Assembly: GCA_031272885.1 (NCBI GenBank)
Contig: JAISSX010000043.1
Coordinates: forward strand, 9,851-73,850
Reading direction: 5' to 3'
Length of the DNA: 64,000 nt
Source: Bifidobacteriaceae bacterium
GTDB lineage: Bacteria; Actinomycetota; Actinomycetes; Actinomycetales; WQXJ01
A model generated the notes under the pieces. The model saw only the letters and a program-made list of their open reading frames with translations, did no database searches and had not been told where the DNA came from. This document shows, in pieces, positions 9,665 through 44,636 of this stretch. How positions within the stretch are numbered: position 1 is the first letter of the stretch; the number at the start of each line of letters is the position of its first letter. Made by a program: the position numbers and the translations under genes.

Positions 9665-9886
9665 GGGTAGAGACTTGTTGCAGTCCGGAGGCGTCATCGA
9701 CCCCTTGGGTAGAGACTTGTTGCAGTCCGGAGGCGTCATCGGCCCCTTGGGTAGAGACTTGTTGCAGATTTTCGGGCCTGGAAGAGCAACATCTCTCTAC
9801 CCCATGCCCGAAACCGGCCGATCAAGTGCAACAAGTCTCTACCCGGCGATCGTCCTGGGCTCCGGTGGTGCAACAACTCTCTACCC
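9665..9886. repeat. Palindromic array A: 18-bp motif, 3 forward then 3 inverted copies, 42-bp period
   Basis: GGGTAGAGACTTGTTGCA at 9665, 9707, 9749; reverse-complement variants at 9785, 9827, 9869. Confidence 0.9.
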
Positions 9887-9916
9887 GGATGCCCGATAGC
9901 GTCCGCCCCGGCGAAC

Positions 9917-10176
9917 CGGAGAGACTTCCGGCGGTCAATCAGACCCAATGCGGCCATCCGGAGAGACTTCCGGTAGTTCTGAAGCCCGATCCGGCCAGGT
10001 GGAGAGACTTTCGGTAGTCAGACAGGCCCAATCCAGCGATCCGGAGAGACTTCCGGTAGTTCTGGAGCGCCAGAACTACCGGAACTCTCTCCGCTTGATC
10101 GATCTGGGCCCGAAAACTACCGCAAGTCTCTCCGGATCGGGTTTGACGGGTGCTGGAACAACCGAAAGTCTCTCCG
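9917..10176. repeat. Palindromic array B: 20-bp motif, 4 forward then 3 inverted copies, 41-42-bp period, variable spacers
   Basis: Consensus CGGAGAGACTTCCGGTAGTT at 9917, 9959, 10000, 10042; inverted variants at 10074, 10115, 10157. Confidence 0.9.
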
Positions 10177-10306
10177 CTTCGTTGACCAGGCCGCTGGCTG
10201 GGCACGTCTCCGCGACCGCTTTGCGGTCCGCGTCGACACGCGCGGGTTAGCCGGAGCCGGGCCAACGACACCGCCCCAGGCGCTACCACAAACCGCCTGT
10301 CACACT

Positions 10307-10620
10307 GTCGAAACTGCACTGGCAGGGAACCGGACGCCATCGGACACGGGCCTGTGACCTGGACAAACGCGCAGGCCCGGAGGCTTGGCGGGGCTCAGGT
10401 CGTGTCGAAACTGCACGGATTTACGGACCGGCGCAAGTCCGCGCAATTCTGCACTGGCACGGAACCGGACGTCGTCGGACGCGGACCTGTGACCTGCGGA
10501 AACGCTTCCGCTCCGAAGGTGGGTAGGGCTGAGGTCGGGTCGAAACTGCACGGATTTACGGACCGGCGCAAATCCGAGCAATTCTGCACTGGCAGGGAAC
10601 TGGACGCCATCGGACGCGGC
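10307..10620. repeat. Tandem repeat C: 135-bp unit, about 2.3 copies
   Basis: CTGCACTGGCA.GGAAC.GGACG at 10314, 10449, 10584; GTCGAAACTGCACGGATTTACGGACCGGCGCAA at 10404 and 10539. Confidence 0.9.
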
Positions 10621-10635
10621 CCAGGGACGGAGTCA

Positions 10636-10955
10636 TCCAATCCGCCAAATCCGGTGTTTCGGGTCATCGAGTCCGCTTGTTTCGGTGGGGTTTGCCGTCG
10701 AGTCCATCAAATCCGGTGCTTACGGGCTCGGCCGAGACAGTGAAAGCCCAGGTCACAGGGTTGAGGCCGGATCGGGCAACACCGGAAAAAGCGGACTCGA
10801 CGCGAAACCACGCCAGATCTGGCGGACTCGATGACCTCAAACACCGGATCTGGCGGACTCGATGACCTCAAACACCGAATCAGGCGGACTCGATGACCGC
10901 AAACACCACAATTAGCGGACTCGATGACCCAAGACACCAGAATTGACGGACTCAA
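10636..10955. repeat. Palindromic array D: 10-bp core, 31-bp period, 3 left and 6 right copies around a central CAGGTCA motif
   Basis: TCGAGTCCGC-like at 10636, 10667, 10698; GCGGACTCGA-like at 10791, 10822, 10853, 10884, 10915, 10946. Confidence 0.9.
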
Positions 10956-11056
10956 CAACCGTCAGGTGGTCGAACCACCCCCGCCCAAGCCGCTGGGCGC
11001 GGCCAGCCGTACCAGGTTGGGGCACCGCGCGTGCTCGGTGTCGGAGAGGTACAAGA

Positions 11057-11093
11057 TGTCATCCCCGGGGTGCAAATGAAGCCTGGGATGACA
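11057..11093. repeat. REP-like hairpin
   Basis: TGTCATCCC...GGGATGACA inverted arms. Confidence 0.55.
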
Positions 11094-11185
11094 CACACTG
11101 GTTGAAGGGATGCGGAGGTTCCCCGTCGTGACCAGGGACGATGCTGAGGTTCCTGGTCGTGACCGACGCCTGCCCGTTGGGCGGG

Positions 11186-11357
11186 CGAGATGCCGGGTCA
11201 AGCGCGGGATGAAGAACAACCAAGCCAGGTATGACCCTTTAGGGGAAGGCCGCGCCGGCGGGGTGCCCGCGGGGCCGAGATACCGGGTCAAGCGCGGAAT
11301 GAGGAACAACCAAGCCAGGTATGACCCTTAAGGGAGAAGGCCCCGCCGGCGGGGCGC
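11186..11357. repeat. 90-bp tandem duplication carrying a REP-like palindrome (GAT.CCGGGTCAAGCGCGG.ATGA)
   Basis: Units start at 11186 and 11276; a related palindrome occurs at about 19373-19396. Confidence 0.8.
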
Positions 11358-11370
11358 CGGCGGGGCCTTC
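11336..11370 (-). terminator. GC-rich hairpin downstream of YDG protein 1
   Basis: Perfect 15-bp stem GAAGGCCCCGCCGGC/GCCGGCGGGGCCTTC. Confidence 0.75.
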
Positions 11371-11397
11371 GGTTAGGGCAGGGTCAGGATTCAGCCG

Positions 11398-14322
11398 TCA
11401 GTTCTGCTCCGGGTCGGTGGCCGATGCCGGGGCGTCAGCCACGGCATCGGCTGCGGCACCGGCTTCGGCCGGCTCAACCACGGGCTCAACCACCGGCCCG
11501 GCATCGACCGGCTCAGAACCGGCCGGATCAACCGCCGGCTCTGCCTCAAGCTCGGCCTCACCGGCCGGGTCCGGCTCCGGCTCACCCTCGTCCCCGCCAA
11601 CCGGCAGGGCATCGGGCGCCACGTCCTCTTCGCGAGCCGCCTCGTCAGGCGCCGACACGGCATCGGCCACCGGCTTGACGTCTTCCTGCGGGTCCGATGG
11701 ATCACCCACCGGAACCACGTCATCGGCCACCGGCTCGTCAACCGGCCCACCAACAGAACCCAGCGGCGCGGTGTTCGCCCCAACGTTAACCGGCTCCAGG
11801 ATCACCATGATGACGGTGACGTTCGCGGAGGGACTGTTGTAGTTGTTCACCCGCGGTGTGCCGTCTGAATACCGCGTGGAGTAGACTCCGAAGCCCTTTG
11901 CAGTGCCCTGGTAGGTGCCGGGATCGGCACTCGGATAGGCCGAAATGCTCCCGGTGTCCAGAATCAGGTACAGCCCGCCCACATCCACCGGCGCGAGGCC
12001 GTCCTCCGAATGGCCGGTCCGCACAATTGAGGCGCCAGACAACGACGTGTTGCCGTCCCAGGCCTTGGTGACCGTGTACTCCACGGTGGCGCTCCAGTCC
12101 CGCTTGGCGATGGATGCCGTGGCAGTGGGCGCGCCAGCCAGCTTGTAGTTGCCGGCCGCCGTCCCTTCCAACTGGTAGCCCCCAAGGAGCACCGGCAGGT
12201 CATTGCCGGCATACCCCTTGGTGAAATAGGCCCACGCTTCGCTGGTGTCCAGGGTCACGTTGTCGTTGCCCACGATGCCGCTCGCGTCGAGCGAGCCCCA
12301 GTCACTCATCGTGACCGAAGGAGTACCGTCATAAACCCGGTCCTGCGCCACGGCGCCAATCACCGACAACGGCTTCGGCGTGATGACCGCGGTCATGGTG
12401 AACGTTTCAGGCAGCTCGTAGTTGCTCGCGCTACCCTCCGTAAAGGAGGCGATCAGGTCCGCACCGGTGACGCCAGACCCAGCATCGTGACTGCCGGCGT
12501 TAGCGTCGACGGACCAGAGGCTCGGGAACACATAACCGACCGTGAACTGATCGTTGCCAACCAGACCGCCAACAGTCACCTGGCGTTCATTCAATACCCA
12601 ATGAAGCAAGCCGTCGCCGTCATACACCTTGGTCAAGGTCAGGTCGATGGTGAGCGGCTTGGGCTGGATGACATCCTGGCGGGTGAAGGTAGACGCCAGG
12701 ACGTAGTTGTGGCCACCGTTGTCGCTGCCGCCTGTAATCTGCAGCAAGCCGCCATTTGGCTCACCTTCGGAGAGGTAGGTGCCGACCGCCGTCGAACTGG
12801 CATACCAAGGCACTGGCAGACAGCTCACATCCAAGGTGTCGCCGCTGACCAGGCCGTCCGTCACCTCGACCCGCTGATCGTAGCTGGGCGACATGAACGA
12901 GTAGCCGTCGTAGAACTTGGTCCGGATAACCTTCGCCTGGACTTCCTTCGGGTCGATGCCGGCCTGCAGCGGCTCGACCGCCAGACGGTAGTTGGCGGCA
13001 TCGTCACCCGTCAGCGACAGCCCGGTCACGGTGACCGGCTTGTCTTCGCCGGCGTTCTTCGTGTCGAACTGGCCGATGGCGTCCCCCACCAGGTCAACTT
13101 CGTCCGGCTCGATGACGCCCACCAGGTCGCCGTCACCGGTCACATCGGTGGTGGTGTCGCCGTCGTAGGTCTTGTTCTGGGCCGTCAGGCCGGTCACGGT
13201 CACCGGCTTCTGGGTGATGTTGCCAACCGGTTGGGTCACCGTGAAGTAATACTTGTGGGCGTCGGCGCCGGTCAGGCTGAACTGGCCTGGGTCAACCGTG
13301 ACGCCGATCTCGTTGCCGGCGTTCGGGCTGGCAAACTCGCCTTCCAGGGTGGCCTGGACGGTTTCGACCGTGACGTCGTCGCCGTCTTGGATACCGTCCA
13401 CGAACTCGCTGGTGGAGGCGAAGACGATGCCGTCCGCGGCGGTGGCGCCATCGTACGTTTTGTCTTCTACCTGCGGGTTCAAGGTCAGTTCGTAACGCTG
13501 GTCAACCGCTTCGACCGTGTAGGTCAGGTGGAACGAATCCACAGCCGTATTCGGGTCGATGGTGGCGGTCAGGGTGCCGTTGACATGGCCGGTGCCGTCC
13601 GGGTTGTCAACCGACATGACCGGGGCCAGGTCACCGGTGAGTGGCTGCCCGTCCACCGCGAAAGTGATGCCGGCGGGGGCGTCGATCCGGCCTTGCACCC
13701 CGAAGTAGGTGGACGCGCCCGGCAGGTCAACCGTGAAGTTGGCCTGGCCGTTCAGGGCTTCGGCTTTGTCGATGGTGATGACAATGTCACCGTCGGTTTC
13801 GACTGTGCCCGCCGTGCCGGCCGGTTCGGCCGCCCAGGCGGTGAACGAACCGGCCACTGCCAGGCCGGCCGCGCCGGCCACGATCAGGGCCGTCTTGGGC
13901 AGGAAGGTCTTGCCGTCGTTCTTGCGCTTGGCGCCCCACAGCAGCAGGCCACCGGCCGCCAGCGCGCCCAGGCCGAAGGCGCCCAGGCGCGGGTCGAAGC
14001 CCGTGTAGGGCAAGCTGCCGGTGGTGCCGGCCGTGTCGGCAGTGTCCGTGCCGGCAGTGTCCGTGCCGGCCGGGTCGGTGCCGGCCGCGCCGCCGCTGAC
14101 GCCGGCATCAGGGTCATTGGTGTCAGTGATAGTAGTGCCGGCGTTCTGGCCGGACGTGTCGCCGCCTTGGGCGGGTTGTTCTCCGGGTGGGGTCGAATCG
14201 ATGACGTTGACCACCACGTCAAGGTCTTGGCTGGTGCCGTCGCCGGCGGCTGTGGCTGCTTGCGCAGTCAAACCGACCAGACCAGCGGCCGCCAGAGCTA
14301 GGCCTAACAGTTGCTTCCTCAT
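11398..14322 (-). CDS. YDG-repeat surface protein 1 with N-proximal LPYTG sorting signal and second signal peptide
   Basis: Signal peptide; LPYTG at 13999-14013 followed by TM and KRK; second hydrophobic segment ending TAWA; about 6 (K/R)xYDG-type repeats; acidic tail. Confidence 0.85.
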   Translation of the reverse strand: MRKQLLGLALAAAGLVGLTAQAATAAGDGTSQDLDVVVNVIDSTPPGEQPAQGGDTSGQNAGTTITDTNDPDAGVSGGAAGTDPAGTDTAGTDTADTAGTTGSLPYTGFDPRLGAFGLGALAAGGLLLWGAKRKNDGKTFLPKTALIVAGAAGLAVAGSFTAWAAEPAGTAGTVETDGDIVITIDKAEALNGQANFTVDLPGASTYFGVQGRIDAPAGITFAVDGQPLTGDLAPVMSVDNPDGTGHVNGTLTATIDPNTAVDSFHLTYTVEAVDQRYELTLNPQVEDKTYDGATAADGIVFASTSEFVDGIQDGDDVTVETVQATLEGEFASPNAGNEIGVTVDPGQFSLTGADAHKYYFTVTQPVGNITQKPVTVTGLTAQNKTYDGDTTTDVTGDGDLVGVIEPDEVDLVGDAIGQFDTKNAGEDKPVTVTGLSLTGDDAANYRLAVEPLQAGIDPKEVQAKVIRTKFYDGYSFMSPSYDQRVEVTDGLVSGDTLDVSCLPVPWYASSTAVGTYLSEGEPNGGLLQITGGSDNGGHNYVLASTFTRQDVIQPKPLTIDLTLTKVYDGDGLLHWVLNERQVTVGGLVGNDQFTVGYVFPSLWSVDANAGSHDAGSGVTGADLIASFTEGSASNYELPETFTMTAVITPKPLSVIGAVAQDRVYDGTPSVTMSDWGSLDASGIVGNDNVTLDTSEAWAYFTKGYAGNDLPVLLGGYQLEGTAAGNYKLAGAPTATASIAKRDWSATVEYTVTKAWDGNTSLSGASIVRTGHSEDGLAPVDVGGLYLILDTGSISAYPSADPGTYQGTAKGFGVYSTRYSDGTPRVNNYNSPSANVTVIMVILEPVNVGANTAPLGSVGGPVDEPVADDVVPVGDPSDPQEDVKPVADAVSAPDEAAREEDVAPDALPVGGDEGEPEPDPAGEAELEAEPAVDPAGSEPVDAGPVVEPVVEPAEAGAAADAVADAPASATDPEQN

Positions 14323-14372
14323 GGCTCGCTTTCTTGTAGATGGAAACTGCCATTACCCACAACTGCGCCTTG

Positions 14373-14448
14373 GCGGCCAACATTCCCGCCAGCGAACAGA
14401 TATTCCTACAGGCGAACACACCGCCACTACCAGGGCAAAGAAGCAGCC
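14373..14448 (-). promoter_or_regulatory. Upstream block conserved between YDG genes 1 and 2
   Basis: Closely matches about 18511-18588; GCGAACA direct repeats 20 bp apart in both copies. Confidence 0.6.
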
Positions 14449-14471
14449 CCGGAACCGTCTCCTGGAGCCAA

Positions 14472-14510
14472 GAAGGCCCCGCCGGTGCTTGGTGCACCGG
14501 CGGGGCCTTC
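14472..14510 (-). terminator. GC-rich hairpin downstream of YDG protein 2
   Basis: Perfect 17-bp stem GAAGGCCCCGCCGGTGC/GCACCGGCGGGGCCTTC. Confidence 0.78.
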
Positions 14511-14523
14511 GGTTAGGGCTGGG

Positions 14524-17500
14524 TCAGGATTCAGCAGTCAGTTCTGCCTCCAGGGCGGTGGGCGATGGCGCGGCCTCGGCCACGGCATCGACCGCCACAC
14601 CGGTTTCGGTTGGCTCAGGGTCGACCGACTCAGGTGCCGGCTCGGTGGCGGCCGGCGCCGGGTCAGCGCTGCCCTCCCCCTCCGGCACGGCATCGCCTTC
14701 CGGCTCTGGATCCGGCTCGCCCTCGTCCCCACCAACCGGCAGGACGTCAGGCTCCACATCCTCTTCCCGGGCCGCCTCGTCAGGCAACGAGGCGCCATCG
14801 GCCAACGGCTTGACGTCCTCCTGCGGGTCCGACGGATCCCCCGCCGGCACCACGTCATCGACCACCGGCACGTCCGCCGGCGCCAACGTCAAACCCATCG
14901 GCGTTATCGCAGCCAGGCTCTGCACCGGGGCCGGATTGATGATCATGGTCAGGGCGAAGTAGAAGGTGGGCCAGTTGTAAGAGTCGTAAATGAAACTGCC
15001 GTCCGGGCGGTAGGTCCCCCACACCGTGCAGTGCTCAACGCCGCCTTGGTAAGTGCCGACCTCGGGACTCGGGAACGGGAAGATGTACTTGAGCTCGAGG
15101 TACCCCCACATCCTGCCTTCATCCGCCGGCGCCAGGCCAGAGGTGGAATGGCTGGTCTGAACCAGTTCAGCGCCATCCACCGACGTGTTGCCGTCGTATG
15201 TCTTGGTAAGGGTGTAGGCCACGTTGATGGTCCAATCCCGTTTGGCGATCGAGGCCGTGGTAGTGGCGGTGTCCGCCAACTGGTAGTTGCCGGCCGCAGT
15301 CCCTTCCAGCTTGTAACCCGTCAGGGCCACCTGCCTGTCGTTACCGGCGTACCAGTTGACGAACCGAGCCGTCACGCCGCTGGTCACCAAGGTCACATCA
15401 TCGCTGCCGACAACGCCACCGTCTTCCAAGGTGCCGCGGTTGGTAATCAGGTTGGTGGCCTCATCGGTGCCGTCATAAACCCGGCCGTTCACGGCGGCGC
15501 CAACCACCGACAAGGGCTTCCGCGTGATCACCTCGGTGTGAAGGAAGGTGGACGCTAGAACGTAGTTGTTGGTTGCGTTCTCACTGCCACCCACCACCCG
15601 CAGATCGATGTCCGAAGGACCGGACCAAGTGTAGGAACCGACGTTGGGTGAACTCCCCCAACCTCCGGCGATGCAATCCACCTGCAAGGTGTCGTTGCCG
15701 ATCAGGCCAGACGCCACCTTGACCTGCTGGTTGTCGGTCGACCGGAGCCAAATGCTGCCGTCGTAGACCTTGGTCCGAGTGACCTCCACCTTGACTTCCC
15801 TTGGCTTGATGTCACCGGTCAACACGGCGCTGTTGCTCACCAACCGATAGTTGCCGCTGGCGGCGCCTTGCAGCGAAATACTGGACACGTCAACGCTCTT
15901 GCCGTCACCGGCGTTGGCGTCCCTGAACTGGGCTGCCTGCGCCGATGCCGCTATGGAAACCTGGCCGCGATCCTGATCGAACAGGCCGTTGATCTCCGCG
16001 TTGGCCGTCACCAAAGTGGCGCTGGTAGTGCCGTCATACGTCTTGTTTTCAGCCGACAACCCCGACACAGACACCGACCGTTTCGTGATCTGGCCAGTGA
16101 ACAACGTGTAAGAGTCATCCAACCTGTAGTTCTTCGCCTGATCACCAGTCAAAGACAAACCCGTATAAGTAACCCACTTGTTGGAGCCCACGTTCTTGTC
16201 GTCAAACGTCGCTACCGGGCTACCAGTCAACCCCACAGTCTCGCCCTTGACCACACCAGTCAACGACGGTGAACCCTGCAGGGACGCAACCCTGGTCCCG
16301 TCATATGTCTTGGACACCGGCGTGTAGCCATCGATGCCCAAAGACTTCTGCCAAATGGTCCGCTGGAACGTCAACGTCTGCAACGCATAGTTACCAGCAT
16401 CGTCACCCTCAAGAGACAGGCCAGTCACAGTGACCGTCTTGTCCTCACCCGCATCCTTGGTGTCGAACGTGCCCACTGCGTAGCCTTCCACCGTCACCTT
16501 GTCGTTCGTCACCACACCATCCAGACCGGGCAGGCCGAACATCGAAGCCTCCCGGGTGCCGTCATAGGCCCGGTTCGACACTTGCACACCAGTCACCGTG
16601 ACCGGCTTCTTCGTGATATCAGCCCGCAGAGTGAGTTGCTCCAACTCATAGTTGCCGGCGTCATCGCCCTCCAACGACAAACCAGTCACAGTGACCGTCT
16701 TGCCCGTAGCGGCCTGCTTGTCACCGAACGTGCCCTCAGGGGTGCCCACCAGGTCGACGTGGTCTTGCGGGACCGCACCCACCAAGGCTGCGTCACCATC
16801 CAAACTGGCTGTGGTGCCGCCGTCATAGGTCTTGCTGTTGGCCCGCAGGGCATCAACCGTGACCGGCTTCTTCGACACATCCGCACCGGACTGCGGCAAA
16901 GTCAAGAAATAGTTGTGGGCGTCCGGGCCATCAAGCTCCAAACCACTGACCGTGACCGGCTTGTTTTCACCCGCGTTCTTGTCATCGAACTGGCCGACAG
17001 CGTGACCCACCAGACCAACCTCGTCCGGTTCGATCACACCCACCAGGCCGCCATCACCCAACACCGTTGCGTCGGTGCCACCGTCATAGACCCTGTCATC
17101 AGCCTGCAAACCCGTAACCGTCAACTCGGCCGGGTCGATGACCGCCATGTTCGAATCAATACCTACCAGTTCATAGTTGCCGGCCTGGGCACCCACCAGG
17201 ACACCCCCTTCGTCGTCCCCAGACAGGACACACTCGGTGGCATGCTCACCCGCGTCCTCACCGTCAAGGTCTTCCGTACCGACATAGACACAAGCCACGC
17301 CATCAGACACCGCGACCTCGTCCTCACCGACAATGCCATCAAGAACCAGGCCACCCCGGTCTGCCCGGTTGTTACCGTCATAGGTTTTCCCGAACACCTC
17401 AGTCGTGGCCGTGACCGGTTTCGGTGTGATCCGGCCCTCCGGTTGAATGACCGTGAAGAAATACTTGTGGGCGTCCGCACCGGTCAAGCTGAACTGGGAA

Positions 17501-18459
17501 GGGTCCACCGTGACGCCGATGCCGCTGCCCGCGTTCGCGTCAGCGAACACACCCTCCAAGGAGTCCCCAGCCTCGACCGTCACCTGGTCGCCGTCTTGGA
17601 TACCGTCCACGAACTCTGCCGTGGAGGCGAACACGACCGTGTCCGTGGCGGTGGCGCCATCGTACGTTTTGTCTTCTACCTGCGGGGTGAGGGTCAACTC
17701 GTGGCGTTGATCAACCGCTTCGACCGTGTAGACGAGGTGGAACGAATCGACTGGCGTGTCCGGGCCGATCATCGCCACCAGGGTGCCCTCGACATGGCCC
17801 GTCGCTTCCGGGTTCTCGACCAACATGACCTGGCCTAGGTCACCCGTAACCGGCTGCCCACCCACCGTGAACTGGACACCCTCCGGGGCGTTGATCCGGC
17901 CTTGCAAACCAAAAAACGTCGAAGCGCCCGGCAGGTCGGCTTCGAAGACTGCCTGGCCGGTCAGGGTTTCGGCCTTGTCGATCGTGATAAGCAGGTCACC
18001 GTCCGTGTCGACCGTGTTGTTCTGGTCAATCGCCCACGACGTGAACGAACCAGCCGCGACCAGACCGGCCGCACCAGCCACGATCAACGCCGTCTTAGGC
18101 AAGGACCTTTTCCCGTTGTTCTTCCGTTTCACACCCCACAACAACAGGCCACCAGCCGCCATCGCCCCTAAACCCAGCACACCCAGACGCGGATCAAACC
18201 CCGTATAGGGCAGGGCCCCGGTCGTGGCCGAACCGCCCTCGCCCGTCCCAGTAGACGCGTCGCCGGCGCTGCTGGGGTTGGCGTCTTGACCAGACTTATC
18301 GCTATCCGGTTCGAGTTCTTCAGGTGGGGTCGAATCGATCACGTTGACCACCACGTCAAAGTCCTGACTGGTGGCGTCATCCGCAGCGGTGGCTGCCTGC
18401 GCGGTCAAACCGACCAGGCCCGCGGCCGCCAACGCTAGACCCAACAAATGCTTCTTCAC
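14524..18459 (-). CDS. YDG-repeat surface protein 2 with N-proximal LPYTG and second signal peptide
   Basis: Likely GTG start (VKKHLLGLALAAAG) behind AAGGGAG; LPYTG at 18199-18213; about 10 YDG repeats. Confidence 0.85.
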   Translation of the reverse strand: MKKHLLGLALAAAGLVGLTAQAATAADDATSQDFDVVVNVIDSTPPEELEPDSDKSGQDANPSSAGDASTGTGEGGSATTGALPYTGFDPRLGVLGLGAMAAGGLLLWGVKRKNNGKRSLPKTALIVAGAAGLVAAGSFTSWAIDQNNTVDTDGDLLITIDKAETLTGQAVFEADLPGASTFFGLQGRINAPEGVQFTVGGQPVTGDLGQVMLVENPEATGHVEGTLVAMIGPDTPVDSFHLVYTVEAVDQRHELTLTPQVEDKTYDGATATDTVVFASTAEFVDGIQDGDQVTVEAGDSLEGVFADANAGSGIGVTVDPSQFSLTGADAHKYFFTVIQPEGRITPKPVTATTEVFGKTYDGNNRADRGGLVLDGIVGEDEVAVSDGVACVYVGTEDLDGEDAGEHATECVLSGDDEGGVLVGAQAGNYELVGIDSNMAVIDPAELTVTGLQADDRVYDGGTDATVLGDGGLVGVIEPDEVGLVGHAVGQFDDKNAGENKPVTVSGLELDGPDAHNYFLTLPQSGADVSKKPVTVDALRANSKTYDGGTTASLDGDAALVGAVPQDHVDLVGTPEGTFGDKQAATGKTVTVTGLSLEGDDAGNYELEQLTLRADITKKPVTVTGVQVSNRAYDGTREASMFGLPGLDGVVTNDKVTVEGYAVGTFDTKDAGEDKTVTVTGLSLEGDDAGNYALQTLTFQRTIWQKSLGIDGYTPVSKTYDGTRVASLQGSPSLTGVVKGETVGLTGSPVATFDDKNVGSNKWVTYTGLSLTGDQAKNYRLDDSYTLFTGQITKRSVSVSGLSAENKTYDGTTSATLVTANAEINGLFDQDRGQVSIAASAQAAQFRDANAGDGKSVDVSSISLQGAASGNYRLVSNSAVLTGDIKPREVKVEVTRTKVYDGSIWLRSTDNQQVKVASGLIGNDTLQVDCIAGGWGSSPNVGSYTWSGPSDIDLRVVGGSENATNNYVLASTFLHTEVITRKPLSVVGAAVNGRVYDGTDEATNLITNRGTLEDGGVVGSDDVTLVTSGVTARFVNWYAGNDRQVALTGYKLEGTAAGNYQLADTATTTASIAKRDWTINVAYTLTKTYDGNTSVDGAELVQTSHSTSGLAPADEGRMWGYLELKYIFPFPSPEVGTYQGGVEHCTVWGTYRPDGSFIYDSYNWPTFYFALTMIINPAPVQSLAAITPMGLTLAPADVPVVDDVVPAGDPSDPQEDVKPLADGASLPDEAAREEDVEPDVLPVGGDEGEPDPEPEGDAVPEGEGSADPAPAATEPAPESVDPEPTETGVAVDAVAEAAPSPTALEAELTAES

Positions 18460-18684
18460 GGCTCTACTCCCTTGTGGTTGGACACTTCCGCCAGCCACAA
18501 CCACACCCCGGCAGCCAACATTTCCCCAAGCGAACACATATCCCTACAAGCGAACACGCCACCACCACCAGTGCAAAGAAACAGCCCCAGCCAGACAATT
18601 CCCGGCGTTGCAGGCGAGCACCTGGCTCCCCAATGCGTGTCGACGCAGCGCAGCGGAGGAGACGCGCCAGGCAAGCATGGCGCC

Positions 18685-18783: not shown

Positions 18784-18955
18784 ACCACATCCTCTAGGTG
18801 CGCGTTGACGTGTTGGGTGGCCGCCCGGCGCTGTTGGCAGGGTGAGAGGGTACGAACAGGAACCCTGACAGGCCATCCCAGAACAACCGAGAGGCCTGGT
18901 CGCCTTGGGGCACGCAACGGTCTCCACTGTTGGGCCCAACCTGCCCCATGGCTCA

Positions 18956-19181
18956 TCGACTCCGCCCTATCTGGTGTTTGCCGTCATCGAATCCGCCGAA
19001 TTCGGTGGGGTTTCGCACCGATTCCATCAAATCTGGCGTCGCCGAACCCAACCTAAGAAGTGAAACCCCAGGTCAGAGACTCGGGCCGGCATCGGGCAAC
19101 ACCGGAAAGGCGGACTCGACGCCAAACCCCGCCAGATCCGGCGGATTCGATAACCCGACACACCACAATTGACGGACTCGA
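18956..19181. repeat. Second copy of array D (3 left and 3 right copies, 31-bp period)
   Basis: Left cores at 18956, 18987, 19018; centre TGAAACCCCAGGTCA; right cores at 19110, 19141, 19172. Confidence 0.88.
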
Positions 19182-19243
19182 TCACCGCCAGCGCCAGGGT
19201 TCGTCCGATTGGGCCACTTGGCCCAGCCGGGCGGTTCCACGGG

Positions 19244-19312
19244 TTACGGGGGACGGTTCCGCGTAACGTGGGCGACGGGGTCGCCCGGGTTACACGGAAC
19301 CGTCCCCCGTAA
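19244..19312. repeat. REP-like inverted repeat with 24-bp arms (1 mismatch) and inner hairpin
   Basis: TTACGGGGGACGGTTCCGCGTAAC / GTTACACGGAACCGTCCCCCGTAA enclosing GGGCGAC-GGG-GTCGCCC. Confidence 0.8.
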
Positions 19313-19335
19313 TGCCCCCTGCGCCCTGCATGTGA

Positions 19336-19396
19336 AAGGCCCCGCCCGTGCTTGATGCACTGGCGGGGCCGAGATCCCGGGTCAAGCCCGGATGAC
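19336..19396 (-). terminator. Terminator-like hairpin plus REP-like palindrome downstream of YDG protein 3
   Basis: GGCCCCGCC.GTGC...GCAC.GGCGGGGCC followed by GATCCCGGGTCAAGCCCGGATGAC. Confidence 0.65.
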
Positions 19397-19419
19397 CTTA
19401 ATTGATGACCGGGATGACC

Positions 19420-37371: not shown

Positions 37372-37384
37372 GGCTCCACCTCCT

Positions 37385-37820: not shown

Positions 37821-38219
37821 TCAGTAGTCGCGGCGGTGTTCCCAGCGGCGTTCAAGGCGCTCGGTCAGGCTGGGGCGCTTGGTCTTGGCGGCCTTGGTGG
37901 GCCGGCCCGGTTCGCCACCATCGCCGGCGTCCGATGCGTCATCGGCCCCGGCCAAACCGCGTTGGGGGGAACTGAAGGCGAGGTAGGCGCCGGCGAACAT
38001 GATCAAGAAGCCGGCAATCGAGACCCACAGTTGGGGGATGGTGATGCCCAACAGCATCACCGCCAAACCGACCACCACGATGCCGATACCCAGGGCGATA
38101 CGACCACGGCGCGGGCTGACGGGCCCGGCCGCCATGCGGGAGCCCAATTTGGGGTCCTCAGAGGCAAGTTGCTGCTCCAACTGGTCAAGCACGCGTTGCT
38201 CGTACTCAGAGAGGGGCAT
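37821..38219 (-). CDS. DUF3040 family membrane protein
   Basis: MPLSEYEQRVL.QLE..L..EDP start, two TMs, C-terminal RLERRWEHRR; usual position between dinB and mraZ. Confidence 0.9.
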   Translation of the reverse strand: MPLSEYEQRVLDQLEQQLASEDPKLGSRMAAGPVSPRRGRIALGIGIVVVGLAVMLLGITIPQLWVSIAGFLIMFAGAYLAFSSPQRGLAGADDASDAGDGGEPGRPTKAAKTKRPSLTERLERRWEHRRDY

Positions 38220-38224
38220 TGCCA

Positions 38225-39451
38225 TCACCTCCGTTCCTGACGGTCGTCCTCTAAGCATAATGTGTCAACCAGAGTGCCGGGCCTGACAGCTTTCGGCCCA
38301 AAGCGCAACCGCACTTGATCGGCCGCGGCCTCGGCCGCCCGCAGGGCGGCCGGTTCGCGCGGCCCGGCGGCCTGGTCCAACGTCAGTTGGACCGCCTGGC
38401 CCTCGCCTTGGACCAGGTTCTCCAGCCGCACGCCGATCAGGCGGACGGGCAGCCCGTGCAGGTTGACGGCCGCCAATAGAGATTCGGCCACCGCCAGCAC
38501 GGCCTTGGCCGAATCGACCGGCGAGTCCAGGGTGCGGGCGCGGCTGACCGTGGTGAAATCGCTGGTACGGACCTTCAGGCCAACCGTGCGGCACATCAGG
38601 CCCTGGGCCCGCAGGCGTTGGGTGGAGCGTTCAACCAGTTGCAGCAGGGCGCGGCGCAGTTCCGGCCCGCGCGGCAGGTCGGTGTCGAACGTCACTTCCG
38701 CACCCAGGGATTTCTCGTCCCGTTCCGGTACCACCGGTGCGTTGTCCTGACCGTTGGCCATGGCCCTCAGGTGCATGGCGTTGGCCTGTCCGATGGCGCG
38801 CACCAAGGTTGGTAGCGGGCTGTCCGCCAGGTCACCGACCGTCACAATGCCGAGACGGGCCAAGGCGGCCTCGGTCTTGGCGCCGACGCCCCACAAGGCG
38901 TTGATCGGTAACGGGCGCAGGAAGGCCAACGTCTGGTCCGGTGGCACCTCCAGCAGGCCATCCGGTTTGGCCCGAGTCGAGGCGATCTTGGCCACCGACT
39001 TGGAGCGGCCGATACCCACCGAACAGGTGATGCCGAAACCCTGCCGCACCTGGGCCCGGATCCGTTCACCGATCTGCCGAGCCGGGCCAAGGCGGCGCAG
39101 CGCCCCGGTGACGTCCAGAAACGCCTCATCGATCGAAACCTGTTGCACCAATGGCGTGACCGCCCGCAGCAACTCCATGACCCCATGTGAGACTTCGGCG
39201 TAGACCGCCCGGTGCGGTTCGATCCACACCGCCTGCGGGCATAGGCGCCGAGCCTGGCCCACCGGCATGGCCGAATGGACGCCGAACGCCCGCGCCTCAT
39301 AAGTGGCGGCCACCACCACACCGCGCTCCCCCGCCCCGGCCACCACCACTGGCTGCCCGCGCAACTCGGGGCGGGTGCGCAGTTCCACGGAAGCGAAGAA
39401 CGCGTCCATGTCGACATGCAGCACCGTGCGGGTGACGCCGGTTTCGGCCAT
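38225..39451 (-). CDS. dinB: DNA polymerase IV (Y family)
   Basis: HVDMDAFFASVE, YEAR.FGV, SIDEAFLD and KPDG motifs; probable ATG at 39451. Confidence 0.96.
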   Translation of the reverse strand: MAETGVTRTVLHVDMDAFFASVELRTRPELRGQPVVVAGAGERGVVVAATYEARAFGVHSAMPVGQARRLCPQAVWIEPHRAVYAEVSHGVMELLRAVTPLVQQVSIDEAFLDVTGALRRLGPARQIGERIRAQVRQGFGITCSVGIGRSKSVAKIASTRAKPDGLLEVPPDQTLAFLRPLPINALWGVGAKTEAALARLGIVTVGDLADSPLPTLVRAIGQANAMHLRAMANGQDNAPVVPERDEKSLGAEVTFDTDLPRGPELRRALLQLVERSTQRLRAQGLMCRTVGLKVRTSDFTTVSRARTLDSPVDSAKAVLAVAESLLAAVNLHGLPVRLIGVRLENLVQGEGQAVQLTLDQAAGPREPAALRAAEAAADQVRLRFGPKAVRPGTLVDTLCLEDDRQERR

Positions 39452-39457
39452 GACGTC

Positions 39458-39479
39458 ATTATCCAACCGACCGCTGACA
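39458..39479 (-). promoter_or_regulatory. PafBC-type (RecA-NDp) promoter of dinB, leaderless
   Basis: TGTCAG-N10-GATAAT-N6-ATG versus consensus TGTCGG-N10-TANNNT. Confidence 0.55.
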
Positions 39480-39508
39480 CCCACCCGCCCCCACCCCTCG
39501 CGCATCGT

Positions 39509-39644
39509 CCCTCCCTCCTCCCGAAAGGTCACTTTCCCAGCCCGAGAGGTCAATTCCGGGCCAAATTGGGGCTGTGTTACCGGTCACAACCACCCCAAAT
39601 TGACCTCTCGGGCTGGGAAAGTGACCTCTCGCGAGGAGGGGGGA
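39509..39644. repeat. ~135-bp inverted-repeat element with 21-bp internal period
   Basis: Arms CCCTCCTCCCGAAAGGTCACTTTCCCAGCCCGAGAGGTCAATT / AATTGACCTCTCGGGCTGGGAAAGTGACCTCTCGCGAGGAGGG. Confidence 0.9.
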
Positions 39645-39646
39645 GA

Positions 39647-40513
39647 ATGGGCGGCATGGGGTCGAATCAGCGCCAGACTGAACGGAGCGGGCGGACCGGA
39701 CGGCGCCGGCCGGCCGTAGTGCCACCGCCCACCGACGCCTTCGCCATCGACACCGGCACGGCCAGCTTCTTGGCCGATCCCCATCGGCCCGGCACCGTAA
39801 CACTGCTGGTCAACGGGGCCCACTCATCACCTTTCAACCTCCACGACCCGGCCGAACTGTACTTCGAGTACATGCAATGGATGCTGGCAGTGCTGCGCAG
39901 CCTCTACCCACCCGAGACGCCGCTGCGGGGCCTGCACCTGGGCGGCGCCGCCTGCGCCCTGCCACGCGCCATCGGGCACCTGTGGCCGGACAGCCGCCAT
40001 CTGGCCATTGAGATCGACGCCAAACTGGCCGAAGCCGTGCGGGCCCACCTGCCGCTGCCACGCGCACCCAAGCTGCGCCTACGGGTGGGGGATGCGCTGG
40101 CGGCACTGGCCGGCAAGACGCCCGCCACCTGCGACATCATTGTGCGGGACGTGTTCGATGGCGTCCGGGTACCGCCCCACGTGGCCGGCACCGAAGCCGC
40201 TCGGCTGGCGGCCCAAGCCCTGGCGCCCAGCGGTGTCTACCTGGTCAACTGCGCCGACCAGCCCGGCCTGCCGGTGGCGAGACGCGAGGCGGCCACCCTG
40301 GCCACCGCCTTCCCCTACGTGGCGGTGATCGCCGAACCGGGCCAACTGCGGGGCCGGCGGCGGGGCAACGCGGTGCTGGTGGCGCGGCACCAAGCCACCA
40401 CACCGGAAACAGAAAGCGACCTCGCACGCCTGCTGCGGGCGGACGCCTTTCCCGCCCGGCTGATCACCGGGGAGGAGACGCCCACCTGGGCAGGCGGCGC
40501 GAGGCCGCTATGA
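39647..40513 (+). CDS. Spermidine-synthase-like SAM-dependent protein
   Basis: L.FEYM, LHLGGAAC.LPR, AIEIDA, DIIVRDVF and G.YLVN motifs. Confidence 0.8.
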   Translation: MGGMGSNQRQTERSGRTGRRRPAVVPPPTDAFAIDTGTASFLADPHRPGTVTLLVNGAHSSPFNLHDPAELYFEYMQWMLAVLRSLYPPETPLRGLHLGGAACALPRAIGHLWPDSRHLAIEIDAKLAEAVRAHLPLPRAPKLRLRVGDALAALAGKTPATCDIIVRDVFDGVRVPPHVAGTEAARLAAQALAPSGVYLVNCADQPGLPVARREAATLATAFPYVAVIAEPGQLRGRRRGNAVLVARHQATTPETESDLARLLRADAFPARLITGEETPTWAGGARPL

Positions 40514-40553
40514 GTTCAGGTAGCCGCAACGGCCACCTGGCTGGGTTGGGGAT

Positions 40554-40757
40554 CTAGAGAACCCGGACGTTGGACGCCTGGGGACCCTTCTGGCCTTCGG
40601 TGATGTCGAATTCGACCCGCTGGCCTTCTTCCAGGTTGCGGAAACCATCGGCCTGAATGGCCGAATAGTGGACGAAGACGTCCTGGCCGCCACCATCTTG
40701 CTCAATGAAGCCGTAACCCTTTTCCGAGTTGAACCACTTCACGCTGCCTACTGCCAT
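40554..40757 (-). CDS. cspA: Cold-shock protein
   Basis: [22 protein letters not shown] and KGPQA motifs. Confidence 0.95.
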
Positions 40758-40951
40758 GTACTGCATTCCTTCCGGGACATAAGGTGGCGCCGGGTGCACC
40801 GCCTCCTACTGCCGCGCCGTCATGAAAACCTTGGACGGGGTTCCGGAACGGTTCCAGCCAGGTGTTTCTTATACGTCACTGCTGCACCGACCATCCTGGC
40901 ACGAGCGGGCGCAACCATCAAATGAGGTTACCCGGCGGGGCCCAGGGGCGG

Positions 40952-41935
40952 TCAGGAGAATTCCGGCCCGGCGGGGCCGTCCTGGCCGTTCGGGCCGCCC
41001 TGGCCGTCCTGGCCGTCCTGGCCGTCCGCCTGGTCTGTCTCACCCAAGGCGGCAAGGTACTTTTCGAACTCGGCAGCCAGTTCGTCGCCGGTGGGCAGAG
41101 CCTCGGCCTCCAGTTCGCCGGCGGCCCGGCGCTGCAGCGCCTGGTCGTAGCGATCCTCCATGCGGCGCACCGCGTCTACCAGATCGGGCGAGCTAGCCAC
41201 CTGCTGGTCGATCTGCGCCCGGGCCTCCGCGCCAGCCTTGATCAGGCGTCCCAGTTCGAAGTTGAGGCCCGTCACGCCGCCGATGACGCGCAGCAGTTGG
41301 GCGGCCCCACCCGGGCAGGGCGTGGAGGCCAGGTAGGCCGGCACCTGCAGCGAATAGGTCGAGGCCTGACGGCCGTTCTCCTTCAGCTTGATCTCGACCA
41401 AGCCCATGGCGGAGCCCGGCAGATGGATGCGGCCTTCGTGGCCGGTCAGTTCCTTGACCAGGGATTCCGGCTGGCCCGGGCCGGAAACCCGCCACGGGCG
41501 GGTGTGGGGCACCGGCACCGGGATGCCGTGCATGCCGATGGCGTGGCCGATGTCGAAGTGATCCGCTAAATCAACCATGGCGCCAGCGAAGGCCTCCCAC
41601 TTGAAGTCGGGTTCGGGGCCATACATCAAGAGGAGCGGCGCCCCCTCGGCATCGTGTACAACATCGATGCCGAGGTCCGGCTGACTGACCCCCAACCAGC
41701 CGTTAGGCCCATATGACATGGGCGGGCGCCTCGAGCGGTAATCCAACAAGTCATCGGTGCGGAAGCTCACCAGACGCTGGGCGTCCCCGTGAGTGACCAG
41801 GTCATTGATGGCCAGGCCAGCCACTACTCCAGCGTCCACAAACCCATCGAAGGCATACAGCAGCCGAGGTGGCTCTCCCCATGATTCAAGCCCCTCGGCC
41901 ACCTCGCGGTGGATTGTGTACAGCTCCTCTTGCAT
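40952..41935 (-). CDS. PAC2 family (proteasome assembly chaperone-like) protein
   Basis: GFVDAG, DYRSRRP, GPEPD..W, VPHTRP and QVP.Y motifs; likely ATG at 41935. Confidence 0.88.
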   Translation of the reverse strand: MQEELYTIHREVAEGLESWGEPPRLLYAFDGFVDAGVVAGLAINDLVTHGDAQRLVSFRTDDLLDYRSRRPPMSYGPNGWLGVSQPDLGIDVVHDAEGAPLLLMYGPEPDFKWEAFAGAMVDLADHFDIGHAIGMHGIPVPVPHTRPWRVSGPGQPESLVKELTGHEGRIHLPGSAMGLVEIKLKENGRQASTYSLQVPAYLASTPCPGGAAQLLRVIGGVTGLNFELGRLIKAGAEARAQIDQQVASSPDLVDAVRRMEDRYDQALQRRAAGELEAEALPTGDELAAEFEKYLAALGETDQADGQDGQDGQGGPNGQDGPAGPEFS

Positions 41936-42216
41936 CGTTTCCCTTCCTTGTCCGGGCCGAGCCGGCACCAGCCGGCCCCCATGAGGCCGGCGCGATGCGG
42001 CGGTGGCAAGCGTCAAGACACGGGACCTGGGGCGGCGCGCCGATGGCGGCCTGTCCCCAGGGACCGGTTGATGCCCGCTCGTACTACCGTCAACAACACG
42101 GCTACCGGATTCATTCCAAGGGTTCCACACCGTTTGGGGCTTTCGCCGTCCACCCTTCAAGCAATAGTATGGATGGCCGCGTTTTCTTCCCTGTTACCTG
42201 AGCCCTGGAGGCGCGC

Positions 42217-44544
42217 GTGTCCGACGCCTACCGCGACCAAGTCGCGGCCGAACAGGCTCACGTGACGCGTGCCTACCGCCGCCTCGACACCCTGCGCCAC
42301 CAGGCTCGCGAGCGCCTTGACCAGGTGCGGCGCGGCCGGGCCGGCGGCTCACCCCAAAACCGGTCCGAACGCGATTCGTTCGCGGCTTTACATTCGGACC
42401 GGCTGGCCCAACTGGAGTCGGTCGAAGACCGGTTGGTGTTTGGCCGCCTGGACCTGACCGATGGCGAAACCCGGCACATCGGCCGGATCGGCCTGCAGGA
42501 CGGCGACCTGACAGCGCTTCTGACCGACTGGCGGGCACCGGCCGCCGAACCGTTCTACCAGGCCACCTCGGCCCGGCGGCTGGGGGTGCGGCTGCGCCGA
42601 CATATCACCACCACCGGCCGGCAGGTCACCGCCATCGAAGACGAACTGCTCGATGTCGCGGCCGACCCTGGGGCGGCGGCCGCGCTGTCGGGCGAGGGCG
42701 CGTTGATGGCGGCCTTGGCGGCCGGGCGGACCGGCCACATGGGCGACATCGTCGCTACGATCCAGGCCGAACAGGACCGCATCATCCGGTCCGACCTGGC
42801 CGGGGCGCTGGTGGTGCAGGGCGGGCCGGGCACGGGCAAGACCGCGGTGGCGCTGCACCGGGCGGCCTACCTGCTCTATTCGCATCGGGAGCAGTTGGCT
42901 GCCAGGGGCGTGCTGGTGGTGGGACCGAGCCGTATCTTCCTGCGCTACATCGACCGAGTGTTGCCGTCACTGGGCGAGACGGGCGTGGTGGCCTCGACGC
43001 TGGGAGACCTGATCCCAGGCCTGTCGGTAGAGCGCCCGGAGGAGCCGGCGGTGGCCGCCATCAAGGGCCGGGCCGAGATGGCCGACGTGGTCAAGGCCGC
43101 CGTCCTGGAGCGCCAACGGCTGCCGCGACGCGACATCGTGCTCAAAGTACTGGGCCGCAGCGTGGTGCTGCGGCGGGCGGACGTGGTAGCAGCGCGGGGG
43201 GCGGCGCGGACCTCCGGCAAGCCGTACAACCAGGCCCGCGTGGTGTTCGTCAAACAGATTCTCGAACGCCTGGCGGCCCAGATGGTGCAGCAACTGGGCG
43301 ACGGCCTGGTGGCAGAGGACTACACCGAGGTGGTGCAGGACCTGCGGGCGGCCCGCGAGGTACGCACCGCCGTCAACCTGTGCTGGATGCCGATGACGCC
43401 CGAACACCTGATAGCCGACCTGTACGCCAAACCGTACCTGCTGGAGCACTGCGCGCCCCAGTTGACCGCCGCCGAGCGGGCGATGCTGGTCCGCCCGGCC
43501 GAAGCTCCCTGGACGGTGGCGGACGTGCCCCTGCTGGACGAGGCGGCCGAACTGCTGGGCGAGGACGACCAGGCCGCCCAGGCTTTGCGGCGCGAAGAGG
43601 CGGCCCGGCGGCGGCGCGAGATCGAATACGCCCGAGGCGTGTTGTCGCTGCACGGGATAGAACAAGAATTGGCCGAACGGGTGGTGGACCGGTTCGCCGA
43701 CCAGGGACCATCACTGACCGTGGCGGAACGGGCCGGGGCAGATCGAAGCTGGACCTACGGCCATATCGTGGTGGATGAGGCCCAGGAACTGTCCCCCATG
43801 GACTGGCGCATGCTGCTGCGCCGCTGTCCGTCGCGCTCTTTGACGATTGTGGGCGACGCCGGCCAGACGCGGGCGGCGGGGGCCGCCGGTACCTGGGAGG
43901 CGTCCCTTGGACCGGTGCTTGGGCCAGCGGCCGGCCGCACGCCGGGCCGAACCTCGGAGCGGCGCGGCGCTAAGCGAGTTGGTCCCAAGCGAACCGGCGC
44001 CGGTTGGCGGCTGGAACAACTGACCGTCAACTACCGGACGCCCGGTGCCGTGGTGCGGGCCGCCCAGGCGATGGCCCGGGCGGCCGGGCTGCCGGTCGGT
44101 TCGGACACGGCCGCGCGGGACGTCGAAGACGCCTTCACGGTGATGCAAGTAGCCGATCCGGTCGCGGAGGCCGTGGCCCTGGCCACCCGCTACGCCCCCG
44201 AAGGCCCGGCCGGACGGCTCGCCATCGTGCTGGCGCCCGGCGAGGTGGCGGCCGCCCTTGAGGCGATCCGCCGCAGTCCGCTGGCCGCCCGGGTAGCCCG
44301 GCCGGGCGAGAATCCGCTGGACCTGCCGGTAGCGGTGCTGGCAGCCGGCGATACCAAGGGGCTGGAGTTCGACTACGTCTTGATTGTGGAGCCGGCCCAC
44401 ATTGTGGGCGACAGCGCCGACCCGCTGGTCCGGCGGGCCGGGGCGGCCGATCTCTACGTGGCGATGACGCGGCCCACCCAGCGGCTGTGGCTGCTCTACT
44501 CGGCAGACCTGCCCCCCTTCCCTCGCGAAAGTACGGTTATGTAG
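42217..44544 (+). CDS. HelD-family RNA polymerase recycling ATPase/SF1 helicase-like protein
   Basis: DWRAP, DIVATIQ.EQD, GGPGTGKT, VVDEAQE, KGLEFD and LYVAMTR motifs. Confidence 0.9.
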   Translation: MSDAYRDQVAAEQAHVTRAYRRLDTLRHQARERLDQVRRGRAGGSPQNRSERDSFAALHSDRLAQLESVEDRLVFGRLDLTDGETRHIGRIGLQDGDLTALLTDWRAPAAEPFYQATSARRLGVRLRRHITTTGRQVTAIEDELLDVAADPGAAAALSGEGALMAALAAGRTGHMGDIVATIQAEQDRIIRSDLAGALVVQGGPGTGKTAVALHRAAYLLYSHREQLAARGVLVVGPSRIFLRYIDRVLPSLGETGVVASTLGDLIPGLSVERPEEPAVAAIKGRAEMADVVKAAVLERQRLPRRDIVLKVLGRSVVLRRADVVAARGAARTSGKPYNQARVVFVKQILERLAAQMVQQLGDGLVAEDYTEVVQDLRAAREVRTAVNLCWMPMTPEHLIADLYAKPYLLEHCAPQLTAAERAMLVRPAEAPWTVADVPLLDEAAELLGEDDQAAQALRREEAARRRREIEYARGVLSLHGIEQELAERVVDRFADQGPSLTVAERAGADRSWTYGHIVVDEAQELSPMDWRMLLRRCPSRSLTIVGDAGQTRAAGAAGTWEASLGPVLGPAAGRTPGRTSERRGAKRVGPKRTGAGWRLEQLTVNYRTPGAVVRAAQAMARAAGLPVGSDTAARDVEDAFTVMQVADPVAEAVALATRYAPEGPAGRLAIVLAPGEVAAALEAIRRSPLAARVARPGENPLDLPVAVLAAGDTKGLEFDYVLIVEPAHIVGDSADPLVRRAGAADLYVAMTRPTQRLWLLYSADLPPFPRESTVM

Positions 44545-44630
44545 GCCAGGCACGCCGGGCGGATTGCGTTTTCGCAGGTCAAATGGTTGGGCTTGGTGGG
44601 CTGCAGCTACATAACCGTACTCTCGCGAGG
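44521..44630. repeat. 110-bp inverted-repeat element with central CAGGTCA motif
   Basis: 24-bp arms CCTCGCGAAAGTACGGTTATGTAG / CTACATAACCGTACTCTCGCGAGG (1 mismatch); centre GCGTTTTCGCAGGTCA. Confidence 0.88.
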
Positions 44631-44636
44631 AGACTA

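Follow-up and report, generated by a model that had tools for sequence, protein, structure and literature searches.

A 64,000-nt stretch of DNA from an uncultured gut actinobacterium, Bifidobacteriaceae bacterium (the window; assembly GCA_031272885.1, contig JAISSX010000043.1, positions 9,851-73,850 of the forward strand), carries short intergenic arrays in which a 17-26-bp core is repeated head to tail at a fixed spacing and then recurs in the opposite orientation. The arrays belong to families, here called A, B, C, E, F and H, that are dispersed through the genome of the window (G000; 2.95 Mb in 81 contigs, 67.5% G+C, 95% complete). The two arms abut in A and B; in C, F and most E elements they enclose a centre motif, M. 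We interpret the elements as non-autonomous intergenic repeats of the class that includes repetitive extragenic palindromes (REP), clusters of terminal inverted repeats (TIR) and miniature inverted-repeat transposable elements (MITEs), with arms in which recognition sites would be repeated for proteins that are encoded elsewhere or have been lost. We give this interpretation a probability of about 0.55. If it holds, one small genome contains at least six gene-less repeat families built on one plan, in which two mirrored arms carry iterated cores that face outward.

An earlier note on this DNA had described six elements in which cores recur at a fixed period and then invert. All six were found by sequence reading and pattern location, within about 5 bp of the positions it gave. 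The family A array (9660-9890) has three copies in each orientation of the core GGGTAGAGA(C/G)TTGTTGCA, starting at 9666, 9708 and 9750 (+) and at 9785, 9827 and 9869 (-), with a period of 42 and a junction of 35. The family B array (9915-10180) has four forward copies of the core CGGAGAGACTTCCGGTAG, starting at 9918, 9960, 10001 and 10043, and three reverse copies at 10076, 10117 and 10159, with a period of 41/42 and a junction of 33. Two of the six elements, which the note had listed among those with different cores, are copies of a single family, C; several distinct families remain. In the first copy (10630-10958) a 31-bp unit, with core TCGAGTCCGCC, occurs three times forward, starting at 10636, 10667 and 10698 (+), and six times in reverse, starting at positions from 10790 to 10945 (-), with a period of 31 and an M motif in the centre at 10749. 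The second (18950-19185), also of period 31, has two or three forward copies (core starts 18956 and 18987) and three reverse copies (19109, 19140 and 19171), with M in the centre at 19069. The family E element (39512-39641) has two cores of the CGA(G/A)AGGTCA type in each arm, starting at 39520 and 39541 (+) and at 39601 and 39622 (-); the period is 21 and the arms form 42-nt complementary stretches. The last element (44521-44630), read earlier as a one-copy-per-arm version, proved to be one of 48 complete copies of family F. It has 24-nt inverted ends, CCTCGCGA(A/G)AGTACGGTTATGTAG, with cores starting at 44526 (+) and 44607 (-) and an M-like motif in the centre at 44575. Tandem Repeats Finder, run on the window, independently recovered the periods 42, 42 and 31. 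The GAGA(G/C)-like heads that the note had seen in several cores were also confirmed: A and B have the head AGAGA(C/G)TT in common and agree at 12 of 18 core positions in a hand alignment, and E and F have a common terminal CCTCGCGA(A/G)AG, including the same A/G polymorphism.

Each core was searched for throughout G000, with up to three mismatches in the census of A and up to one for C. Since cores crowd contig ends, the following copy numbers are lower bounds: 81 cores in 26 clusters for A, 109 in 31 clusters for B, 78 in 48 clusters for C, 226 in 57 elements for E, and 98 in 50 clusters for F, where 48 complete pairs lie 80-82 bp apart. Reversed-pattern searches of the same genome served as the chance control and gave no match, against 65 matches to the A core itself (at up to one mismatch) and 127 to the E core. 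Neighbouring cores in the same orientation were 42 bp apart in 37 of 42 cases for A (41-44 bp in 41 of 42), 41 or 42 bp apart in 60 of 61 for B, 31 bp apart in 45 of 55 for C, for which the pattern was noisy, and 21 bp apart in 64 of 67 for E. The cores are thus neither confined to the window nor randomly spaced, as the genome scan proposed in the earlier note could have shown them to be. The number of copies per arm varied from one to six among loci. Polarity did not vary: at all 90 opposite-orientation junctions within 200 bp the heads pointed outward (14 to 0 for A, 19 to 0 for B and 57 to 0 for E).

Scanning G000 for tandem arrays of period 15-150 gave 817, of which 76 had an inverted partner. 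The scan recovered A, B, C and E and revealed the large sixth family, H, with the core GTTAC(A/T/G)GGGGACGGTTCC and periods of 16 to 38. The idea that periods approximate whole helical turns, which was drawn from the arrays with periods of 21, 31 and 41/42 bp (A, B, C and E), does not hold for H. A palindrome of family H with the GGGGACGGTTCC core lies in the window at 19230-19320, absent from the earlier note, and H shows the same grammar elsewhere in G000.

Families A, B and C recur together with a 135-bp repeat and other short modules, often in the same order, forming mosaic intergenic islands on many contigs. In the window the 135-bp tandem repeat occupies 10193-10620, between the B array and the first C copy, as 2.3 copies plus a partial one, with one M per unit on the minus strand (10352 and 10487). 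A core lay within 300 bp of 59 of the 162 contig ends of G000, although only 6.8% of the genome falls within that distance. The sequencing run with the best match carries the label termite gut metagenome; no RNA run was listed as a match, and a second DNA run with a match has about 2x depth in short contigs. In what is likely to be the source sequencing run the assembly breaks at repeats. These repeats account for assembly breaks at roughly one contig end in three; some also mark rearrangement breakpoints, and others immediately precede core genes such as ftsZ and topA.

Comparison of cores with spacers bears on whether the arrays act as DNA or RNA. Arm-to-arm complementarity was 0.88 for cores and near chance for spacers (0.36 in A, 0.46 in B), and adjacent spacers within one arm of A or B were 51-54% identical; unit length in A and B stayed fixed despite this drift, and did so in two species. 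What is conserved is therefore a series of cores at equal spacing rather than a continuous hairpin, which fits phased protein-binding sites. The fixed unit lengths of A, B, C and E suggest a protein that binds double-stranded DNA on one face. In family E, distances between the inner cores grouped into length classes (88, 98-100, 109-111 and 119-120 bp) despite differences in the content of the centres, with a periodicity peak at 10.5-11 bp; as independent centre types are few, this signal is only suggestive. The A core has no self-complementarity, and a 5-bp stem in the B core is lost in variants from a congener, G001 (69% complete). The arms of A differ at the C/G position in most loci. The B arrays of G001 do not all show this asymmetry, and we therefore did not use it as evidence.

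Structured RNAs had been named earlier as an alternative. The elements might then be genes or parts of, for example, long hairpin small RNAs, stabilisers of 3' untranslated regions or terminators, with the arms maintained for their stems. Single strands folded better than shuffled sequences (z = -7.5 for F, -12.1 for E and -8.1 for A, the last as a long interrupted hairpin), and arms that differ among species stay complementary around the same centre. Folding of this strength is expected for any inverted repeat, and complementary arms are equally expected of any inverted-repeat DNA element; the spacers of A and B would give internal loops of 24 x 24 nt. Gene context was assessed with a crude gene caller based on G+C at third codon positions, made for this analysis. 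Of the 42 F elements that could be placed, 16 lay between convergent genes and three between divergent ones (background, 311 and 317 of 1928), so that F is enriched downstream of genes. Centres showed no strand bias relative to flanking co-directional genes, being oriented with them in 13 cases and against them in eight for F, and in five and 11 cases respectively for E. In 47 M-oriented F elements, one polymorphic stem pair was GC in 22, AC in 13, GU in 11 and UU in one, and the other AU in 24, AC in 14 and GU in nine. Neither pair had a compensating double change in any of the 47 elements, and 13 and 14 of them carried mismatched combinations, so that pairing of the F stem is not being restored. 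Rfam 15 gave no match at gathering score in the 64-kb window, and a lax search of the islands and F gave only hairpin-like matches to microRNA models far below the cut-off. Structured RNA is therefore disfavoured, having neither an Rfam match nor strand bias nor compensatory changes in its support, and we regard it as highly improbable.

The centre motif M has a consensus of approximately (A/G)CGTTTnCGCAGGTCA(G/C)AG(C)GTTG and occurs in either orientation at the centre of C, F and most E elements, as well as in each 135-bp unit. At up to two mismatches, every one of the 18 genomes scanned from the same family was enriched in M (for example 77 copies in G000, 91 in G017, 37 in G014 and 33 in G009, against 0-4 in controls). 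The motif was at or near the control level in most of 22 genomes from other families of the order. Its surroundings differ between genomes: in G017 it lies between two copies on each side of a 21-nt core, 31 bp apart; in G009 between single 25-nt inverted ends; and in G007 within a 136-bp tandem unit, the analogue of the 135-bp repeat of G000. The centre is thus conserved across genera, whereas each lineage has arms of its own. A literature search with the motif as a string returned nothing relevant. The string GTCACAGCG is given as a recognition motif of MtrA in mycobacteria in the part of PMC2945938 consulted. The C variant of M contains GTCACAGCG, a resemblance in sequence that may serve as a lead only.

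One way to account for this conservation is a palindromic class common to the Bifidobacteriaceae, in which the approximately 23-nt M would be the working site of a conserved protein that binds or cuts it and the helically phased, lineage-specific arms would co-evolve with a changing partner that binds double-stranded DNA. Families A/B, C, E and F would then form a two-protein platform or a new kind of transposon end, distinct from REP, TIRYT and DDE elements. We consider this distinctly unlikely. The exact unit length amid spacer drift, and a family-wide centre motif with replaced arms, are left unexplained by descriptions of REP, TIRYT and MITE elements; together with the E length classes, they make the arrays a testable case for binding to double-stranded DNA.

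The cores themselves are narrowly distributed. Among 40 relatives scanned the A core was absent and the E core occurred at most once per genome, and whole F elements were found in G000 only, among the genomes searched. Family B arrays were present at at least eight loci in G001, with up to five copies in each arm, 36 of 37 same-orientation spacings of 41/42 bp, and a junction of 33. A scan of genome contigs with a loose three-core pattern found B arrays in records titled as Bifidobacteriaceae metagenome-assembled genomes (MAGs); the other matches were mostly unrelated and AT-rich. Long arrays matching a loose AGAGA(C/G)TT pattern with a period of 41-42 bp were also seen at three loci (L074, L054 and L115) in unrelated MAGs titled Prevotellaceae, unclassified bacterium and Oceanispirochaeta, and may be coding repeats or chance matches. 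In wider collections, the B double core and the F end had no match in metagenome contigs, window positions 9600-11000 had no BLAST match in plasmids or phages, and the A core had three single-copy matches in viral contigs, within chance by our estimate. Literature searches on Bifidobacterium MITE or REP elements and on bacterial MITEs with subterminal repeats, which did not cover the supplements of the papers used, found nothing relevant.

Comparison of orthologous sites between G000 and G001 indicated turnover. The same phosphoglucomutase-family gene is preceded by an A array in G000 and by a B array with five copies per arm in G001; three array sites of G001 are array-free in G000, and other sites carry F or H elements instead. 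These differences indicate gain, loss and replacement rather than static inheritance. At one F site G001 contains an unrelated 160-bp filler. The F element of the window stands exactly at a breakpoint (44545-44636): serA is inverted in G000 relative to G001 (locus L028) and G004 (locus L029), in both of which serA runs in the direction of the helicase gene. About 19 kb of sequence (G000:C26:7780-26915, locus L034) is likewise inverted relative to G001 (locus L039); F marks one breakpoint, and the other has no repeat.

The boundaries of the elements were also inspected. The outer flanks of A-B composites are unique sequence, and F elements have a C-rich left and a G-rich right flank. Matches of 4 bp flanked six of the 57 E elements, compared with one in the shuffled control, which is not convincing as a target duplication. 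At the right flank of F the last five or six end bases and the adjacent flank are often reiterated in tandem two to six times with a period of 12-13 bp (for example at G000:C40:42430-42500, C70:11745-11790 and C66:70615-70640); this may be the footprint of a process acting on the end.

Such reiterations are among the features that could be attributed to passive processes, in which palindromes are duplicated or inverted by slippage, template switching or recombination and spread by gene conversion, with no dedicated protein. The variable copy number per arm, the presence of F at two rearrangement breakpoints relative to G001 and the failure to find a transposase would agree with such an origin. 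Slippage, however, does not carry a sequence to 26-57 unlinked loci, and passive processes leave unexplained the species-specific families, the conservation of cores beside diverged spacers and the invariable outward polarity. We therefore judge an entirely passive origin very unlikely.

Counterparts containing a gene were found in relatives. Genes matching Y1_Tnp are present in four of five genomes of a sister genus, and at three of the four Y1 loci inspected in relatives two direct copies of a repeat stand upstream of the gene and two inverted copies downstream. The repeats contain GGGGACGGT, the H core. These loci have the same grammar as the arrays with a gene in the middle, and correspond to the TIRtron/TIRYT arrangement of Di Nocera et al. 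(2013) as set out in the part of PMC3733652 used here. A search of G000 with seven transposase families (Y1_Tnp, DDE_Tnp_1, IS110, TnpB, IS256, ISL3 and IS21) found only an IS21-type pair as transposase-like genes, IstA (440 aa) and IstB (315 aa), at G000:C21:21840-24300 (locus L157), with two direct 37-nt repeats 63 bp apart at the IstB end. IS21 ends carry L1/L2 and R1/R2 repeats, according to the portion of PMC11208146 consulted, and the repeats of the G000 element match this description. As the Y1 loci of relatives and the ends of IS21 show, transposon ends are already known to carry recognition sites that are iterated and mirrored, and deleting the gene from between such ends leaves a centre-inverted array.

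On the interpretation that we favour, non-autonomous repeats recognised in trans, the cores of each family would be the recognition sites of a family-specific DNA-processing protein, a transposase or recombinase. The gene for this protein would once have stood between the arms, as the Y1 genes of relatives do; its loss would have produced centre-inverted arrays, which would then have spread in trans. Arrays clustering side by side would have formed the mosaic islands, with copy number altered by slippage. Both the protein and the mobility in trans are what we infer here. If the scheme is right, it traces concretely how a transposase gene with repeated ends could give rise to an orphan phased array.

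A number of results weigh against this scheme. No cognate gene or protein for A, B, C, E or F was found in G000, which is 95% complete, and no gene was seen between A-F arms there; the only half F element in G000 adjoins a truncated gene. Y1_Tnp (PF01797) had no match in G000 or in the less complete G001, whereas six of 14 control genomes were positive, and G000 had no profile match to DDE_Tnp_1, IS110, TnpB, IS256 or ISL3. The repeats of the G000 IS21 element are unrelated in sequence to A-F. A connection between M-rich genomes and Y1 transposase was considered and rejected, as G017, G009, G014 and G007 have no Y1_Tnp; the Y1 link therefore holds for H only. MITEs usually show the opposite of what is seen here, where the centre is conserved and the arms vary. 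For 45 of 48 F elements the flanks had no direct repeat as long as 3 bp, the same as for shuffled flank pairs, and no clean filled and empty site with exact boundaries was found in comparisons of G000 with G001 and G004, so that the proposed comparison of filled and empty sites established that sites differ or are empty in G001 and yielded no clean boundary. Finally, cores are strongly conserved at nearly all loci while spacers are about 50% diverged, which selection at each locus fits better than pure parasitism. Of the proposal that these are phased platforms or non-autonomous mobile elements, each served by its own protein, the dispersed, non-coding, lineage-specific repeats with conserved, spaced cores were thus recovered and the cognate protein was not.

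In a rival explanation the arrays would be primarily nucleoprotein platforms used by the host, with a conserved protein on M and a fast-evolving partner on the phased cores, along one face of double-stranded DNA, organising or regulating nearby promoters; a mobile origin would then be secondary. The constancy of unit length (21, 31 and 41/42 bp) amid spacer drift, as in 60 of 61 spacings for B in G000 and 36 of 37 in G001, the length classes of E with their 10.5-11-bp periodicity, and the enrichment of M in 18 of 18 genomes of the family all agree with this explanation. So does the location of A-B arrays upstream of the genes for FtsZ, topoisomerase I, serine hydroxymethyltransferase, SufB and a phosphoglucomutase-family enzyme, at distances of 54-260 bp. 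However, the neighbouring genes do not recur: BLASTP gave no link among the 45 genes flanking 28 A/B islands, which are diverse housekeeping genes, and the neighbouring-gene enrichment that had been proposed as a check was thus not seen. The A end faced the gene start in 11 of 14 composites, which in our reading is not significant. H shares the grammar with periods of 16 to 38, the arrays are different or absent at orthologous sites of the congener, and the searches yielded no candidate protein. Common descent could account for the length classes of E, and with few independent centre types they are a weak test. On balance, we think a host function of this kind unlikely.

Set against known systems feature by feature, the families are not supported as members of the REP-RAYT, TIRYT, DDE-MITE or CRISPR classes. 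Like A-F, the TIRtron/TIRYT repeats are dispersed, moderately abundant inverted-repeat families found as dimers and clusters, and they lack a target duplication, as do F and E (PMC3733652, in the part consulted). Their gene-less copies occur as singles, dimers or clusters, as those of A-F do. In TIRYTs a Y1 gene is flanked by the same repeats; no Y1 gene flanked by A-F repeats was found in G000 or G001, nor in 24 further genomes that were searched. The GGGGWSAS-type motif described for that family in the same part of PMC3733652 is absent from the A-F cores, and only H carries GGGGACGGT; strict 21/31/42-bp phasing and a common centre motif are not mentioned in the portion of that source used here.

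REP sequences and bacterial interspersed mosaic elements (BIMEs) resemble the families of the window in being extragenic, of high copy number, often downstream of genes and combined with other short motifs in mosaic islands, as far as the parts of PMC2817692 and PMC3733652 used here describe them. The unit of REP/BIME systems with a REP-associated tyrosine transposase (RAYT) is an imperfect palindrome of 20-40 nt that bears an unpaired tag, GTAG or CGTC, at one end, whereas the A and B cores are not palindromic, and GTAG lies inside the A, B and F cores rather than at the foot of a hairpin. Units of BIMEs alternate in orientation, whereas A, B and E are arranged in blocks (>>> <<<), with no '< then >' order among the 90 junctions. 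No match to the RAYT gene of such systems was found in G000 or G001.

The arms may also be compared with transposon ends that contain several binding sites. Tn7 and Mu also have ends with several transposase sites, and elements of this type have conserved TG...CA termini and a duplication of 4-8 bp. In IS21, as described in the part of PMC11208146 consulted, a site is repeated directly in one end and in inverted orientation in the other, a likeness to A-F in architecture only. Unlike such multi-site ends, A-F have no gene between the arms, show no duplication in E or F, and contain up to six equally spaced copies per arm.

MITEs derived from DDE insertion sequences consist of terminal inverted repeats around a short non-coding element, as found here in the 24-nt ends of F and the 21-42-nt arms of E. 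Bacterial MITEs such as Correia, RUP and ERIC are small non-coding inverted-repeat elements with tens of intergenic copies. The target-site duplication of a DDE-derived MITE was not seen for F nor, convincingly, for E, and no autonomous partner with the same ends was found in G000 or in the metagenome, plasmid and phage collections. The arms of eukaryotic foldback or inverted repeat/direct repeat (IR/DR) transposons are internally repeated, as are the window arrays, in the partial accounts of these elements used here. Clustered regularly interspaced short palindromic repeat (CRISPR) arrays have repeats in a single orientation with unique spacers, whereas the arrays of the window invert and have spacers partly conserved between loci. 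The named genes flanking the window elements are ftsZ, genes for YDG-domain proteins, dinB, a helicase gene and serA; no cas gene is among them, although no search with cas profiles was made. The earlier statement that no transposase adjoins the arrays stood, and no recurrent gene adjoins them either. The mosaic islands, the presence of M in C, E and F alike, family H and the gene-containing counterpart in relatives had been missed.

Some further features of the window were noted beside these elements. GAGGAGG closes the right arm of the E element (39622-39650) a few bases before an ATG at 39648, the possible start of a downstream frame that has no Pfam match, and the left arm is the complement. 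The element could mask or supply the ribosome-binding site of this frame. A cell-division and cell-wall gene cluster (8059-36914) is interrupted by three large genes for YDG-domain proteins, probably surface proteins (11398-14322, 14524-18537 and 19420-22281), which lie between ftsZ (8059-9399, minus strand) and genes from 22336 onward (minus strand) that we take to be the mur/fts genes of the cluster. Repeat islands are found after the first YDG gene and between the second and third. A 90-bp tandem repeat at 11186-11367 and a related stretch at 19350-19420 each lie just downstream of a YDG gene, and both contain a hairpin module, P, of the CCCGG..TTGA..CCGGG type, which is also paired around M in many E elements.

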